Translations under genes and position numbers: made by a program
From: a virus
Taxonomy: Duplodnaviria > Caudoviricetes
IMG/VR virus record: IMGVR_UViG_3300025607_000005
Span: 1-29,295 of that record
Reading direction: 5' to 3' (one strand)
DNA length: 29,295 bases
The notes under the pieces: model-generated
What the model was told of the DNA's origin: nothing
Database searches by the model: none
The model's input: the letters and a program-made list of their open reading frames with translations, nothing else
Part shown: piece after piece, positions 8,388-29,162 of the stretch
Layout of the letters: every line of letters starts with the position of its first letter
Numbering within the stretch: the stretch's first letter is position 1

Positions 8388-8425
8388 AAAAACCGATGCA
8401 TTATATTAGTGTATCGGTTTTTTTT
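8388..8425 (+). terminator. Intrinsic terminator
   Basis: AAAAACCGATGCA...TGTATCGGTTTTTTTT. Confidence 0.8.
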
Positions 8426-8426
8426 G

Positions 8427-8434
8427 TAGTTTTG
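8427..8434 (+). promoter_or_regulatory. -7 promoter element of RNA-switch cassette 1
   Basis: TAGTTTTG = TAnnTTTG; same relative position as TATCTTTG in cassette 2. Confidence 0.7.
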
Positions 8435-8437
8435 TAT

Positions 8438-8598
8438 AGCACAGAAATATGAAAACTATGATTTTCAAAAACATTTTTACTAATAATAAATCCTACGAGA
8501 GATGCGGTGTAAGTCCGTCCTTAACTTCGTTTTCGTTGTTTCTGTGCTCCACTCGTAGGTATTTTTTTAAATCTCATTATCATGCACAGAAACAACGA
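8438..8598 (+). ncRNA. Structured leader / C4- or CI-like antisense RNA element, copy 1
   Basis: Outer stem CCTACGAG (8492-8499)/CTCGTAGG (8552-8559); inner hairpin GCGG-TGTAAGT-CCGT; box 8533-8547 is the exact reverse complement of 8584-8598; 8539-8548 also pairs with 8438-8447. Confidence 0.75.
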
Positions 8599-8839
8599 GA
8601 CAACAACAGTCCTAGAGGATTTAGACAACACAATTTTCAATCATCATACAGCGCAACTTGCTAGTGATGATTTAGACGCCATGTTTTTACATTGTATTGG
8701 CGACGAAAACTTTGATGATCACAGAATTAGGCAAAGCATTACACAATCTTTTATAAGTTTGAAGCGCGTAACCCAATGTGTGCGAGATAAAAAGCATCCT
8801 AATGACGTTTTAGTTTTAGAAATAAGAATAGATGTTTAA
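8582..8839 (+). CDS. Small helical protein, paralog B (RNA-controlled)
   Basis: 85 aa; clear similarity to 20553..20819 and 6556..6861. Confidence 0.8.
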   Translation: MHRNNETTTVLEDLDNTIFNHHTAQLASDDLDAMFLHCIGDENFDDHRIRQSITQSFISLKRVTQCVRDKKHPNDVLVLEIRIDV

Positions 8840-8850
8840 ATTTGTATACT

Positions 8851-9204
8851 ATGTAAGCACCAAAATTCACATTTGAGGAAAGTCAATTATTGTTACGTTT
8901 ATTAAAAGCTAACAGTGATAAGGCTGTTTCAGAATTACCAAACCCTACTGGGTATTTGGATTTAGTAGTTAAGCTAAAAGAATTAGTAAACTTTGCTTAT
9001 GTATCTGGAGAAGCGCATCCTCCTCAAATTTTAAGCGAGGTTACTGAATTGGATCCAGAAAAATCTGCAGAATTTTTAGAAAAAATAAGAAATCGTAATG
9101 AGTCTAAAATTACACTAGCTAATGGTTCTACAATTAATCTTATTTCTGGTAGTGATACAGGAGAAGAAGGAAGGGGTTTAACTCCTTTTGAATTTAATAA
9201 TTAG
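8851..9204 (+). pseudogene. Hypothetical protein with terminase-like C-terminal segment; ATG at 8851 is followed at once by in-frame TAA (nonsense allele, or TTG start at 8890)
   Basis: ATG TAA GCA CCA AAA TTC... runs in frame into ORF 8890..9204; TAAATTTG -7 box at 8837-8844. Confidence 0.5.
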
Positions 9205-9207
9205 ATT

Positions 9208-9444
9208 ATGGACTTTGAAAGACATAAAAGAATAAAGGAGGCAATTTTAAATGACAAAAGCATAGAATCTTTGGTTATGCAAAAGCAAAAAATAATGAAT
9301 TCTCTTGATTTTAAATACGTTTTTAACAAAAGTACAAATACAATTTCAGGTAAAATTTTTGATAAAGACACAATTGAAGCGTTAAGTATTATTGATGCTG
9401 AAATTGAAAGGATTACAGAGAAAATTAAAAAATGTTTTATTTAA
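9208..9444 (+). CDS. Hypothetical protein
   Basis: 78 aa ORF with ATG 3 nt after the previous stop; ends before a terminator. Confidence 0.65.
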   Translation: MDFERHKRIKEAILNDKSIESLVMQKQKIMNSLDFKYVFNKSTNTISGKIFDKDTIEALSIIDAEIERITEKIKKCFI

Positions 9445-9469: not shown

Positions 9470-9497
9470 AAACCACTCCTAACCGAGTGGTTTTTTT
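9470..9497 (+). terminator. Intrinsic terminator
   Basis: AAACCACTC-ctaacc-GAGTGGTTTTTTT; nearly identical to 20349-20378. Confidence 0.85.
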
Positions 9498-9498
9498 G

Positions 9499-9534
9499 TG
9501 TCCTATTTTAAAAACTTTACACTTTCCATATTTG
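9499..9534 (+). promoter_or_regulatory. Putative late promoter, copy 2 (TGTCCTATTTT-N17-CATATTTG)
   Basis: Five-copy motif; heads the terminase operon. Confidence 0.75.
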
Positions 9535-16731: not shown

Positions 16732-17236
16732 ATGAGTATCACTAAAAACTTTGCAAAACTAGAAGTAATACTAGCTACCTTTTTACTGTTTGTGCCATTA
16801 ATATTAATAGGCTACACTAATGAAGTGCGTGGTAGTATTTCCAACTACGCTTATTCAAAAGCACCGCATGTATTTTCAATGTTACTCTCTATTGCTAGTG
16901 CTATGTTTATTTACAACGGGGCAGTTAAAAGTAAACAGTGGTTTAATATAATTTTAGGCTGTGCTTTAATTGGAGTGATCCTAACACCACATTTAGACTA
17001 TCCAATATGGCATTATTCATTCGCTACGCTGTTTTTTTTTAGGGAGTGTATTTGTAATGATATTTTTTAGTTCAACAAAACAACGAGTGTATAAAATTGC
17101 TGCAGGAATGATTATAGTGTTGGGGTTACTCGGTCATTTCTGTACGCACTCGTATAGCTTACTATATGCGGAGTGGATTGGCTTGTTTCCAATATCCATT
17201 CACTTCATTGGGGAATCACTAAACAAAATCGATTAA
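16732..17236 (+). pseudogene. Multi-TM membrane protein (DUF998-like) frameshifted at a T9 tract
   Basis: Removing one T from 17032-17040 gives a 167 aa ORF ending ...LLYAEWIGLFPISIHFIGESLNKID; SISNY and H..FA.LFF motifs. Confidence 0.75.
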
Positions 17237-20348: not shown

Positions 20349-20378
20349 AAAAACCACTCCTAATCGAGTGGTTTTTTT
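20349..20378 (+). terminator. Intrinsic terminator
   Basis: AAAAACCACTC-ctaatc-GAGTGGTTTTTTT. Confidence 0.85.
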
Positions 20379-20405
20379 GTAGATAAAAATATTTATGTAT
20401 CTTTG
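20376..20405 (+). promoter_or_regulatory. Bacteroidota -33/-7 promoter of RNA-switch cassette 2
   Basis: TTTG (20376-20379), 18 nt spacer, TATCTTTG (20398-20405). Confidence 0.75.
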
Positions 20406-20408
20406 AAG

Positions 20409-20569
20409 TGCGAACCGAATACAACATTATGATTTTCAAAAACATTTTTATTAATAATAAAGCCTATGAGAGAGGCGGTGTAAGTCCGTTACTCACTTCG
20501 TTATCGTTGTTGGTTCGCAGCACTCATAGGTCTTTTATAAAATCTCAATATTATGCGAACCAACAACGA
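20409..20569 (+). ncRNA. Structured leader / C4- or CI-like antisense RNA element, copy 2
   Basis: Outer stem CCTATGAG (20463-20470)/CTCATAGG (20523-20530); same inner hairpin as copy 1; box 20504-20519 is the exact reverse complement of 20554-20569; its 3' 8 nt also pair with 20409-20416. Confidence 0.75.
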
Positions 20570-20819
20570 GACAACAAAAGAAACAACAGCAGTACTGGAA
20601 AACTTAGACAGTACAATTTTCCTAAATCATGATGTGCAAGTGGCTATCGATGATTTAGATGACATGTTTATATCATGTATGACAAGTGAACAATACGAAA
20701 GTGATTTTTTACGGCAAAGTACTATGGAAACACACATAACGGTAAAACGTTTACTACAATGTGTTAGAGATAAAAAAGCCCCTGAGTATGTAACGGTATT
20801 AGAAATGAGAATAAAATAA
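20553..20819 (+). CDS. Small helical protein, paralog C (RNA-controlled)
   Basis: 88 aa; similar to 8582..8839 along its whole length (VLE.LD.TIF, DDLD.MF, RQS, QCVRDKK.P, VLE.RI). Confidence 0.8.
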   Translation: MRTNNETTKETTAVLENLDSTIFLNHDVQVAIDDLDDMFISCMTSEQYESDFLRQSTMETHITVKRLLQCVRDKKAPEYVTVLEMRIK

Positions 20820-20852
20820 TAAATCAAAAAATAAAGGAGCTTAGTTTAGTAA

Positions 20853-20918
20853 GTCCCACAAGTTCCGAAAACAGAACCTTCGGAACGTACTGTTTCCGCA
20901 TATGTGGAACTGTGGAAC
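20853..20918. repeat. Second cluster of TGTGG(G/A)AC-type octamers
   Basis: GTCCCACA 20853; GTTCCGAA 20862 and TTCGGAAC 20879 (inverted pair); TTTCCGCA 20893; TGTGGAAC 20903 and 20911. Confidence 0.7.
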
Positions 20919-20951: not shown

Positions 20952-20982
20952 AAAACCTCACTGGATCCAGTGAGGTTTTTTT
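20952..20982 (+). terminator. Intrinsic terminator
   Basis: Perfect palindrome AAAACCTCACTGGATCCAGTGAGGTTTT followed by more T. Confidence 0.85.
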
Positions 20983-25883: not shown

Positions 25884-27794
25884 ATGAATTTAATTAAAAT
25901 ACTAGTTTCATCACATAATGGTAGAGTGTTTGATACTACAGAACTTGATTATGTTAAAAAAACATTGTCTATTAAGCGCGAAAACAATGCTTTTTCACCT
26001 GATTTTGAGGTTAGTCATACCACACACCCCTTTTTAATTATTGAAAACGATAAATCAATAACAGCTTTGGGACCTCGCGATTTAACGACTGTTTTTAAAG
26101 TGAAAACAGTTACTGTTACCGTTGTTGAAATGGATCAGCATTATGTTGGTGAACTCCAAATTCGTCAGTATACTAATGGTTTTCGGAAGGCTAACCTAAG
26201 ATACGCCTCAAACCTATTAACATTAAAGGATAGTAAAATAGCTAGTTTTATGCCTGTTATTTCGGTTGTCCCAAACAACCCCAATCCTGCTCCTTATGTG
26301 GAAGAAACAATTAATATGCCTCCTCCATTTAGTTATTGGACGGATTATGTAACCGCACTTGAAACTAAAGTGTATCCGGATGTAATGTTTCAAGTGCCTG
26401 TTATGCATTGGCCTAATAAATTTGGGACTGAGATGAATGCGAATAGCGAGTGGTTTGATTATGGAGGAGAAATAAATAAACGGACTAACGGCTTACTTCA
26501 TTTTAACGATGGTTTTGGTGCGGATACACTTGCGCCAGTAAGTAATGTTAGTGTAGTGTCTCCCCAAGTGTTTTTATTAGCTCCGTTACATTATATTGCT
26601 CAAAGCATGGGGTATGCTTTAAAAGGAGACTTCCATACGCATGAATTTGTAAAAAAAATACTACTGTTTTCGGATAAAGATAACATGGTAGCTACAAATG
26701 TTGATGATGAAGATATTATTGATTTAAACAGTGAGTCATTTGTTGCTTACACAATAATAGAGGGTTTACCAGATAATAGATCTGCTCTTTCGGTGTTTTG
26801 GAATCCTGCTATGGGAGGTAGTGCAACCTTGTCTTATTATTTTGAAGTTCCTCCAAGTGCGATACCAGATACTTATGTTTCTTTAAATATAACTGGTTTC
26901 GATACAATAGAAATTTTAAACCAACAAATTGGAGCTAATAATGGCGATAACTATGTTTTTCAAGGAACCTTTCCGTTTTCGATTTCGGAAACCGATACGG
27001 GAACTATCCATTTTACACATACTAATGGTGTAAATCCCATAAATCCAGACCTTGAAATACAAGTTATTTCACCTAATAAGCATTATCATACCCATACTAC
27101 AGTCGATTTAGGAAGGTATGTACCTGATATGACGGTACCAACTTATTTTACAATGTTAAAAAACCTGTTTAATTTAAGTATTGAGGTAGATGATTCTGTA
27201 AGGGAAATTGATATTAATTTCAATGAAAATATAGGTGTAACTGAAGTGCCTGAGATATTAAATCATTCTTTGAAATTGGCACCTTTTAATATTGCTCCAA
27301 ACACCTCTTTTTTATTGAAATACACTAATGAGGTTGATGCAGCTATGTTTGTAACTAGGGATTTAGCTACTGTTTACTCTAATCAATATGATCAGTTTAA
27401 TAAAGAATTAAATATCCCGTTTAAAACAATACCTCATAACGGTACTACAAGTGAGTTGAGTAGTAAAGTAGTAGAAAGGGATGGTGTTGGTTTAATGATT
27501 TATGATCCAACGACATATCCAAATACAGCAACAGTTGTTGGAGGACAAACTTTATTTCTTGATGGTGTAGGTGGTATTTATGAATCGTTTTGGAAAAAAT
27601 GGTTGAAATTCAGGTTAAGTGCATCCAGAATAACATTGGAAGGGCCTTTAACAAGAACTGAATTTACTAAAATTAATAAAGCAAATGCTATGTATGTTGA
27701 TAATCAACACTACAGAATAGTATCAACTACATTAATGCAGTCCTCCAATACATTAAATGAAGTTAAGTTCGAGTTGGAGAGTGTTAATTTTTAA
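25884..27794 (+). CDS. Tail tip/hub protein (probable)
   Basis: 636 aa; last structural gene; VPDMT...F...LKNLFNL pattern. Confidence 0.6.
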   Translation: MNLIKILVSSHNGRVFDTTELDYVKKTLSIKRENNAFSPDFEVSHTTHPFLIIENDKSITALGPRDLTTVFKVKTVTVTVVEMDQHYVGELQIRQYTNGFRKANLRYASNLLTLKDSKIASFMPVISVVPNNPNPAPYVEETINMPPPFSYWTDYVTALETKVYPDVMFQVPVMHWPNKFGTEMNANSEWFDYGGEINKRTNGLLHFNDGFGADTLAPVSNVSVVSPQVFLLAPLHYIAQSMGYALKGDFHTHEFVKKILLFSDKDNMVATNVDDEDIIDLNSESFVAYTIIEGLPDNRSALSVFWNPAMGGSATLSYYFEVPPSAIPDTYVSLNITGFDTIEILNQQIGANNGDNYVFQGTFPFSISETDTGTIHFTHTNGVNPINPDLEIQVISPNKHYHTHTTVDLGRYVPDMTVPTYFTMLKNLFNLSIEVDDSVREIDINFNENIGVTEVPEILNHSLKLAPFNIAPNTSFLLKYTNEVDAAMFVTRDLATVYSNQYDQFNKELNIPFKTIPHNGTTSELSSKVVERDGVGLMIYDPTTYPNTATVVGGQTLFLDGVGGIYESFWKKWLKFRLSASRITLEGPLTRTEFTKINKANAMYVDNQHYRIVSTTLMQSSNTLNEVKFELESVNF

Positions 27795-28957
27795 AAAGAA
27801 TAAGAAGAGTTTTTTACCATTGCATCGGCACCGCTATTTCTATCAGTATATCCCTCAGTAACTTTTAAATCGTGGTGTCTGGCTTGGTCTCTTACTTTTA
27901 TTGCCGGTATTCCAGAGTTTAACAATTCTGTAATACCACTATCTTTTAAAGAGTAAAATTGATACACATCACTTAGTCTTAGTGCTTTTCGCATTCTTGC
28001 CCATTCGTCACTAATAGCTTTCGGTTTTAATTGTATGTCTCCGCACTTATAATTGTTTTCTGAAAATAAATAATCTGAATTTTTAGCGTTTTTTATATGG
28101 TGCGCTAACATATTAATGTACTCGTTAGGAATTGTGATTGGTTCTGTTTTGTGGTTTTTAGAATCATCTCCATCAATTAAAATGTAACCATCCAGAAGTC
28201 TTACATCTTTAACTTTGATTTTTGTTAACTCAGTTCTTCTAATAAAACAGTAGTAAGTAGCTAAGCAAAGTGTCATATAGTCTTTATTATTATTTAAAAA
28301 ATAATCTCCAATTTTCTCTCGGATAATTTTCGGTATGACTTTACGTTTCTTTTTCTCTTTCTTTTTCGTTTCCATTTTGGAGGTAGGATCTACTTTAATG
28401 AAATCACGTTGTAGCAAATACTTGCAAAAAACTCTTATTCCAAGTAAATAATTGTTGTGGGTTCCGGTAGAGTTATTTCTTTCATAATATATATGATCAA
28501 TAAACCCCTGGACAAAAGCGGAATTAAAATGAAGACAATACATTTCTTCCTTCCCCTCCCTGATCATATAGTTTTGCAGGTTTTTTATATAGGACCTATA
28601 TGACCTAACGGTATCTGGGCGTAAGGCTTTATCTTTTAATTGTTTTTGCAATCTCTTTAAATACAATTCCGCAACCTCATTTAAACTAGCAAAACTTCGT
28701 GTAGCTTCTTCTTCAATAAATGGGTTCCATCCTTTTTCAAGTTTAATATTGATTTCGGCTACTATTCTGCGTGCGTATTTTAGCCTTAGAGTAGCGTTGT
28801 TCATTGGCTTTACTCTATTCCTTTTTCTAACTAATTTGTTCGAAAACGGGTTTAAAACATAGAAGACAATGTTCCATTCTTTATTTCTTCTAAGTTCTGC
28901 GGGGACATAATCAACCAAAGGGATATTTGAGCTGAGATTTTTTTGAAGCTTTTCCAT
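27791..28957 (-). CDS. int: Tyrosine recombinase (phage integrase)
   Basis: FIRRTEL (catalytic R), K, YSLKD in place of HxxR, RH...T.GY; adjacent to the tRNA. Confidence 0.93.
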   Translation of the reverse strand: MEKLQKNLSSNIPLVDYVPAELRRNKEWNIVFYVLNPFSNKLVRKRNRVKPMNNATLRLKYARRIVAEINIKLEKGWNPFIEEEATRSFASLNEVAELYLKRLQKQLKDKALRPDTVRSYRSYIKNLQNYMIREGKEEMYCLHFNSAFVQGFIDHIYYERNNSTGTHNNYLLGIRVFCKYLLQRDFIKVDPTSKMETKKKEKKKRKVIPKIIREKIGDYFLNNNKDYMTLCLATYYCFIRRTELTKIKVKDVRLLDGYILIDGDDSKNHKTEPITIPNEYINMLAHHIKNAKNSDYLFSENNYKCGDIQLKPKAISDEWARMRKALRLSDVYQFYSLKDSGITELLNSGIPAIKVRDQARHHDLKVTEGYTDRNSGADAMVKNSSYSF

Positions 28958-29087: not shown

Positions 29088-29088
29088 G

Positions 29089-29162
29089 TAGCGTGAGGCA
29101 GATTCGAACTGCCGACCTCCTGAGTATGAATCAGGCGCTCTAACCAACTGAGCTACCACGCC
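29089..29162 (-). tRNA. tRNA-Met(CAT), elongator type; probable integration site
   Basis: Minus strand GGCGTGGTAGCTCAGTTGGTTAGAGCG-CCTGA-TTCATAC-TCAGG-AGGTC-GGCAG-TTCGAAT-CTGCC-TCACGCT-A; no initiator features; CCA not encoded. Ile2 not formally excluded. Confidence 0.93.

Follow-up and report, generated by a model that had tools for sequence, protein, structure and literature searches.

The stretch of DNA analysed here, referred to below as the window, is a whole virus record of 29,295 bases that carries an S49 head protease gene together with terminase-like, portal-like, and tape-measure genes, an integrase gene (27791-28957), and a tRNA-Met gene (29088-29162). Because head and tail genes, an integrase, and a tRNA-Met occur together, the record represents one end of a prophage with a flank of host DNA. 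Within it lie two cassettes with 82% identity over a stretch of 158 nt, and terminator-like hairpins flank each of them, one 5′ of the promoter and another 3′ of the cargo gene (Table 1). Their −7 boxes are assigned as Bacteroidota promoters by the TAnnTTTG consensus, which we take to apply here; a clear −33 box was not found upstream of the −7 box of copy 1. From these boxes and from the kinship of the leaders with those of Flavobacterium phages we infer a Bacteroidota host, and the prophage is likely to belong to that phylum.

Table 1. Positions of the features of the two cassettes in the window.
Feature	Position	Strand	Basis or remark
Terminator-like hairpin	8388..8422	+	16 pairs, T tail; insulates cassette 1 from the upstream gene
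Copy 1 −7 promoter box, TAGTTTTG	8427..8434	+	Sequence; −7 box common to 11 of 11 elements
Copy 1 box A	8439..8456	+	G8439, 5 nt past the −7 box, is the putative transcript start; 8438-8447 pairs with 8539-8548 (10 bp), GAAAAC 8451-8456 with GTTTTC 8529-8534
Copy 1 upstream ORF, 68 aa	8458..8664	+	Translation doubtful; starts 19 nt past the putative +1 and crosses the RNA
Copy 1 stem-closed RNA domain	8492..8559	+	8-bp closing stem, CCTACGAG 8492-8499 with CTCGTAGG 8552-8559
Copy 1 constant hairpin	8504..8518	+	4-bp stem, 7-nt loop UGUAAGU
Copy 1 antisense box B	8529..8548	+	Pairing; 8533-8547 with box C (15 bp, all Watson-Crick)
Copy 1 box C	8584..8598	+	Pairing; G of ATG into codon 6
Copy 1 cargo	8582..8839	+	85-aa protein, unnamed family
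Two further ORFs, 8890-9204 and 9208-9444	8890..9444	+	No named function
Bidirectional terminator-like hairpin	9470..9493	+	End of cassette 1
Hairpin insulating cassette 2	20351..20380	+	Repeat of 9470-9499
Copy 2 −7 promoter box, TATCTTTG	20398..20405	+	Sequence
Copy 2 box A	20410..20433	+	7 bp perfect from the putative +1, G20410, then bulged pairing; 20409-20416 pairs with 20512-20519 (8 bp)
Copy 2 upstream ORF, 67 aa	20429..20632	+	Translation doubtful; crosses the RNA
Copy 2 stem-closed RNA domain	20463..20530	+	Closing stem CCTATGAG 20463-20470 with CTCATAGG 20523-20530; constant hairpin 20475-20489
Copy 2 antisense box B	20504..20519	+	Pairing; whole box with box C (16 bp)
Copy 2 box C	20554..20569	+	Pairing; T of ATG into codon 6
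Copy 2 cargo	20553..20819	+	88-aa paralog (54% identical), predicted three-helix bundle
Bidirectional terminator-like hairpin	20952..20979	+	End of cassette 2

One 30-nt terminator-like hairpin, 97% identical between 9470-9499 and 20351-20380, closes the first cassette and precedes the second, which suggests that the cassettes travel with a common insulator. The two ORFs behind the copy 1 cargo probably share its transcript, there being no terminator-like site before 9470. Behind the copy 2 cargo, the 130 nt that precede the terminator include imperfect inverted repeats rich in TTCCG/GGAAC (20852-20915), which might form a structured 3′ UTR or bind a protein. Elsewhere in the window, DUF7103 is spread over two overlapping ORFs at 16732-17236 (112 and 59 aa, covering model positions 1-103 and 105-158), an arrangement that suggests a frameshift or a split gene.

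In both cassettes, box B within the stem-closed domain is complementary to box A at the head of the leader and to box C on the cargo gene. The helices described in the first-pass annotation are present at the places it had claimed, with 15 and 16 bp for B:C, 10 plus 6 and 8 bp for A:B, and a closing stem in each copy; the closing stem and the two B pairings are mutually exclusive. The address reads GCACAGA in copy 1 and GCGAACC in copy 2, and the four differences said to be common to A, B, and C are borne out in all three boxes. The 8-bp closing stems likewise covary as proposed, with one compensatory change between the window copies. Box C had been placed over the start codon, which is accurate from inside the ATG to codon 6, but the bases before the start codon are left uncovered. 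The loop UGUAAGU of the constant hairpin is presumably T-loop-like, judged by the consensus. Mimicry of tRNA was considered and rejected, as the hairpin comes after the 5′ stem strand and not, as in tRNA, after the 3′ strand, and ARAGORN finds nothing there.

The complementarity is unusually strong when compared with shuffled B boxes. The B:C energy was reached by 0 of 1000 shuffles in either copy, and that of B:A by 0 of 1000 in copy 1 and 2 of 1000 in copy 2. When the window and five related loci were scanned for complements of at least 11 nt upstream of an ATG, three places emerged, of which two are the window copies. Because no other start codon within the window carries a complement of at least 9 nt to either B, each RNA seems to address its own cassette only. 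The two copies had been called orthogonal, and this is partly true: predicted duplex energies are −27.5 and −29.9 kcal/mol for the cognate pairs, about twice those of the pairs formed between copies (−14.2 and −14.4 kcal/mol), but the two C boxes have AACAACGA in common, which leaves 8 shared bp and cross-pairing at about −14 kcal/mol. Since cross-pairing reaches about half of the cognate energy, the two channels are predicted to be separated, with partial orthogonality.

A covariance model of the kind that the first-pass annotation had recommended was built from the two stem-closed domains, and hence contains B but neither A nor C; searched against cellular genomes, it returned a new copy with a new address in all three boxes. 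The match, in one of 150 genomes at 58 bits, is a locus (L072) directly 5′ of a tape-measure-like gene in another prophage. It has the −7 box and, five bases on, the G that opens box A; its closing stem is CCCAAGGG/CCCTTGGG, its hairpin loop is UGAAAGU, and its third address, GCACGACAAAA, is found in both A and C, which pair with B over 12 and 14 bp, respectively. In the three compact copies all 36 stem cells are paired; both bases have changed in 4 of 12 pairs overall and in 3 of 8 pairs of the closing stem. With three sequences only, this covariation, with shuffle counts of 6-25 of 500, is weak by itself. Both B:A and B:C are strongest between cognate partners in 3/3 copies. The cargo of L072 is a different ORF of 56 aa, unrelated to the window cargo; it is similar (36% over 44 residues) to the C-terminal portion of what the second gene encodes in the Unahavirus cassette described below. 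A fourth compact copy was not found: the compact model gave the same single match among 22 genomes of the genus that contains L072 and in another search of 150, and 0/75 and 0/75 in two further cellular sets, all genome sets being overlapping samples. Within the genome samples searched, the compact form is rare.

The A/B/C layout is also present in eight longer leaders from related phages, Flavobacterium Unahaviruses among them. When identical leaders are entered once, the elements number 11 (three compact and eight long) and fall into six address classes. The G five bases past the −7 box is as constant as the box itself (11/11), and the first bases of A and C, at least six of them, are identical in all elements except L031. 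BLAST with one long leader found the Flavobacterium phages 6H, 1H, 23T, 2A, FPSV-F7, D15, D35, and D17, and the leaders of 6H, 1H, 23T, 2A, F7, and D15 were examined in sequence. The address GACTAAA goes with a cargo beginning MTKE in 6H, 1H, and 23T, versus GCAAAAA with MQKE in 2A, F7, and D15; the Unahavirus address thus changes together with the first residues of another cargo, and it does so among close phages. A further address, GTCAAAA, goes with MSKE (L056). As a structure the long core (six sequences) has good support, with 93% of its cells paired and both partners changed in 10 of 24 pairs. L072 and the eight long leaders, as independent homologs, support the C4/CI-like layout and the co-varying address that had been read from the window copies.

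The two pairings of B are not equally conserved in the long leaders. Pairing with A is long and the cognate partner is the best one in 7 of 8 (9 of 10 elements in a set that does not include L072). Pairing with C is weak, at 5-10 bp, with the cognate partner best in only 2 of 8, and strong B:C pairing is confined to the three compact copies. Complementarity of B and C in homologs, on which the earlier interpretation depended, therefore holds for L072 (14 bp) but is reduced to 5-10 bp in the long leaders and lost in one. That leader (L031, 614 onward) has A:B intact and is a natural test case for the need of C pairing.

Several other features of the long leaders were observed. In phage 6H (L028, 7735-7787, minus strand) the leader is intact and is followed by a cargo truncated within a few codons, which abuts the tail gene, unlike in phage 1H, which keeps a 103-aa ORF behind its leader; a leader kept without cargo fits, and would be compatible with, a role in trans. 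In phage 2A (L036, 2177-2885; also in 1H, F7, and D15) the leader drives a 103-aa ORF that overlaps the start of a 134-aa ORF; in public annotation the second gene is started too early (184 aa) and the first is absent from some records. The long-leader pattern gave six matches, two of which (L030 and L033) were dropped as chance pattern matches. In cellular genomes the pattern matched 0 of 401 and the long-leader model 0 of 150. Common descent of the compact and long forms may be argued from layout, position, and shared cargo, and from these only.

A search of cluster representatives gave 43 relatives of the window cargo at E<=0.001; the alignment used (A8) left out the top row, a 3950-aa repeat protein, and eight others that were mostly short or partial matches. 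Among 22 related virus records the cargo matches nine places, five with an A/B/C leader and three without such a leader, and because three of the nine homologs lack it, the cargo does not need the leader. Many relatives begin MTKE, MSKE, MQKE, or MHKE, residues that are encoded by known addresses. An AlphaFold model computed with 45 sequences has three helices (mean pLDDT 88.5). The cargo has no informative Pfam, PHROG, PDB, or fold match, a result that does not in itself show a new fold; the best structural comparison (Z 6.8 over 51 residues, rmsd 2.6) was to generic helical hairpins, and Atlas matches were all below 0.9. Wider searches added little. The cargo profile matched 0/151 and 0/301 cellular genomes, protein-pattern scans returned only one locus already known and the window's own record, with no new confirmed relative, and tblastn of a cargo homolog against phages found none. 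With copy 2 as the query, BLAST against phages and plasmids gave short chance or terminator matches only. The pattern of the constant hairpin had no match in one scan of viral contigs; in a further scan it had four, all of which were rejected as chance.

How the three helices might work together was approached by folding. When the full leader, from the putative +1 to codon 10, is forced into each state, the closing stem gives −21.1/−24.4, A:B −28.8/−29.9, and B:C −35.0/−38.3 kcal/mol (copy 1/copy 2). In growing 5′ pieces A:B forms first, and B:C once C is complete. Because the closing stem is the least stable of these states and is nevertheless kept with compensatory changes, a domain free of A and C fits best; the conservation would be easiest to explain if the stem-closed domain exists cut free of both boxes, as CI and C4 do.

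We consider it somewhat better than an even bet that each cassette is a switch of the c4/CI type, in which a pulse of cargo is followed by shut-off through a short RNA acting in trans, specifically for the address of each copy. Transcription would start at the G that opens box A, and the emerging B would pair with A, leaving the start codon free and allowing a pulse of protein in a cell that does not contain the RNA. A part of the transcripts would instead fold the closing stem and yield, by cleavage, a stable product of about 70 nt. Acting in trans, the cut RNA would then bind both boxes, A and C, on newly made transcripts, blocking initiation over codons 1-6, and this binding would leave the B domain of the new transcript free for folding and cleavage in its turn, a positive feedback that would keep the gene off in the lysogen. 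In the compact copies B could in addition displace A and take C in cis, making the pulse shorter. A cassette that enters the cell with a different address would evade this silencing. In this scheme the cargo is likely to be a small three-helix protein that is released in a brief pulse and then shut off. A role in immunity would be suggested by likeness to C4 and CI, and by likeness only, because the cargo lacks an assigned function.

The same folds can be read as a switch or timer that acts wholly in cis, with no RNA cut out, in which A:B frees the start codon, B:C displaces A:B, and the closing stem is a timing intermediate. In the folds, no state of the whole leader is more stable than B:C, and A:B is the first to form in growing pieces, as such a device would require; the device would also be served by the terminator-like hairpins that close each cassette and by the lack, in the window, of any other start codon with a B complement of at least 9 nt. 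However, a timer in cis needs no address of its own for each paralog, yet the 11 elements have six classes that differ even between close phages, and its timing intermediate retains compensatory changes though it is weaker than both other states. On this evidence we regard the timer as the main alternative, although an unlikely one.

A ribosome-driven version is quite improbable. It would have the upstream ORF translated through the RNA, melting B:C or the closing stem, and A:B or the bound free RNA would hide the start of that ORF. All three compact copies have an AUG 19-20 nt past +1 followed by 67-72 open codons that cross the hairpin in one common register, and after shuffling the frame remains open as far as the main ATG in 165, 106, and 329 of 2000 trials, odds that cannot be multiplied because the three copies are related. 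According to the available text of PMC8198154, the c4-icd-ant operon of P1 also contains a small regulatory ORF, icd. Yet six of six long leaders tested have no ATG at this place, the frame of the ORF relative to the cargo varies (1, 1, and 2), and most differences between the window copies change an amino acid. The upstream ORF may serve ribosome control or may be a by-product. An ORF once drawn over P4 CI is a precedent for a by-product of this kind.

We give very little weight to an RNA antitoxin guarding a toxic cargo, that is, an addiction or abortive-infection module resembling a type I toxin-antitoxin system. The self-contained cassette with its own promoter and terminators, the small cargo, and the strong occlusion of the start would suit such a module, but the cargo, predicted to be soluble and to fold into three helices, matches no known toxin family or fold, its homologs occur without the leader, and L072 drives an unrelated 56-aa ORF. 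That the boxes are functionless remnants of a local duplication and inversion is extremely unlikely, for although the window copies are 82% identical over 158 nt and hence not independent, coordinated change at three sites has occurred in several lineages, including coding changes at the cargo N-terminus, and both L072 and the Unahavirus swap already contradict it.

Returning to the trans-acting c4/CI-type switch, we put forward tentatively, and with some doubt, a broader proposal: that the compact RNAs form a separate family of Bacteroidota prophages (about 70 nt, with one stem, a T-loop-like hairpin, and a guide of 14-16 nt) that serves as a portable, re-addressable repressor. Its address would be placed at the transcript start and over codons 1-6 of any cargo, and a genome could hold several insulated channels, each firing only where the matching RNA is absent. 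In this case RNA pairing rather than protein function likely sets the first residues of the protein. Bacteroidota genes mostly lack Shine-Dalgarno sites. If action in trans is true, the RNA would amount to a programmable translational repressor of 70 nt for Bacteroidota. In the literature searched, tests of C4/CI-type immunity RNAs were found for Proteobacterial phages only, and no description of such a leader in Bacteroidota was found in a search that left most subscription papers outside. The present elements provide a Bacteroidota version with a natural series of addresses and two channels in one genome. They also name concrete targets, the 5′ end and codons 1-6, for the c4-2-like leaders of cultured Flavobacterium phages, which makes the c4-2 family testable.

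The relation to catalogued RNAs differs between the compact and the long forms. In the comparison with the Rfam models of C4, c4-2, and c4-a1b1 that the first-pass annotation had suggested, the window copies matched no family. c4-2 (RF02944, clan CL00128; Weinberg 2017) is called a likely distant homolog of a known RNA in the accessible portion of its description (PMC5737381). Its cut-off of 41 bits is passed by three of the eight long leaders (49.4, 47.4, and 43.2), two more score below it (39.1 and 34.0), and the other three have no match. A search for c4-2 had no match in L072, nor at E<=5 across the window or at E<=10 within 8400-8650, and the compact RNA (window copies and L072) had no score against c4-2, C4 (RF01695), or c4-a1b1. 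A model of the six long leaders gave no score on the window copies, and compact-form models gave none on the long leaders. The suspicion that the family is undescribed is thus upheld for the compact copies by the lack of an Rfam match, but not for their long sisters, which score as c4-2, nor for the address principle, which is published for P1 and P7.

Leaders before the same cargo family or at the tape-measure site score as c4-2, and those long leaders have promoter spacing and the A/B/C layout in common with the window copies. Unlike c4-2, the window RNA is shorter, has one 8-bp closing stem without an internal loop and no third stem, and carries a hairpin with a 7-nt UGWAAGU loop where c4-2 has an arm with a GAAA tetraloop; the compact form also has a B:C helix of 14-16 bp. 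The three-way junction, the internal loop of the closing stem, and the GNRA-capped second arm of c4-2 are all absent from it. Judged by eye, the compact stem may correspond to a c4-2 closing stem whose internal loop has collapsed. In cellular genomes, Rfam c4-2 was found in 1 of 151, that copy being without the A/B/C layout. A canonical c4-2 of 67.6 bits lies between two copies of a direct repeat in a Bacteroidia-class genome (L040, 1501-1579, minus strand; G062) and has no start-codon box, and because of this c4-2 can be said to occur both with and without the A/B/C layout.

The C4 RNA of P1 and P7, recorded for Proteobacteria and phages in the part of PMC2864571 available, resembles the window RNA in being a stem-closed RNA within its own leader, with complementary sites upstream and at the next gene, and in occluding a translation start. 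The available text of PMC5320573 covers its structure, its processing by RNase P, and the 4 nt that switch specificity between P1 and P7, so that non-cross-reactivity through a 4-nt address is already published. C4, which controls icd-ant and has its targets catalogued as c4-a1b1, uses two loops (a′ and b′), whereas the window RNA has one continuous box; its target is the ribosome-binding site, whereas here it would be codons 1-6. The window further differs in that the upstream site comprises the putative first bases of the transcript, that the cargo is not a recognised antirepressor, and that the closing stem begins with CC, whereas the RNase P site of C4 is given as GGW in the same available text (PMC5320573). 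P4 CI and Gifsy-1 IsrK share with the window RNA one pairing site upstream and one downstream, and CI is processed from its leader and pairs with seqA and seqC, as far as the accessible part of PMC4825925 describes it. CI, however, acts by premature termination of a replication operon, whereas in the window no terminator lies between the boxes, and the window cassettes are accessory genes among late genes, with two addresses in one phage. What the window cassettes have in common with the C4/CI type are sites in their own transcript both upstream and downstream of the RNA, an address that co-varies with them, and a downstream site on the translation start. The best reading of the compact RNA is that of an uncatalogued variant of the c4/CI self-addressed antisense switch, which works like C4 and CI by its anatomy, stands outside every Rfam family by its score, and employs a principle, the re-addressable guide, that is already known.
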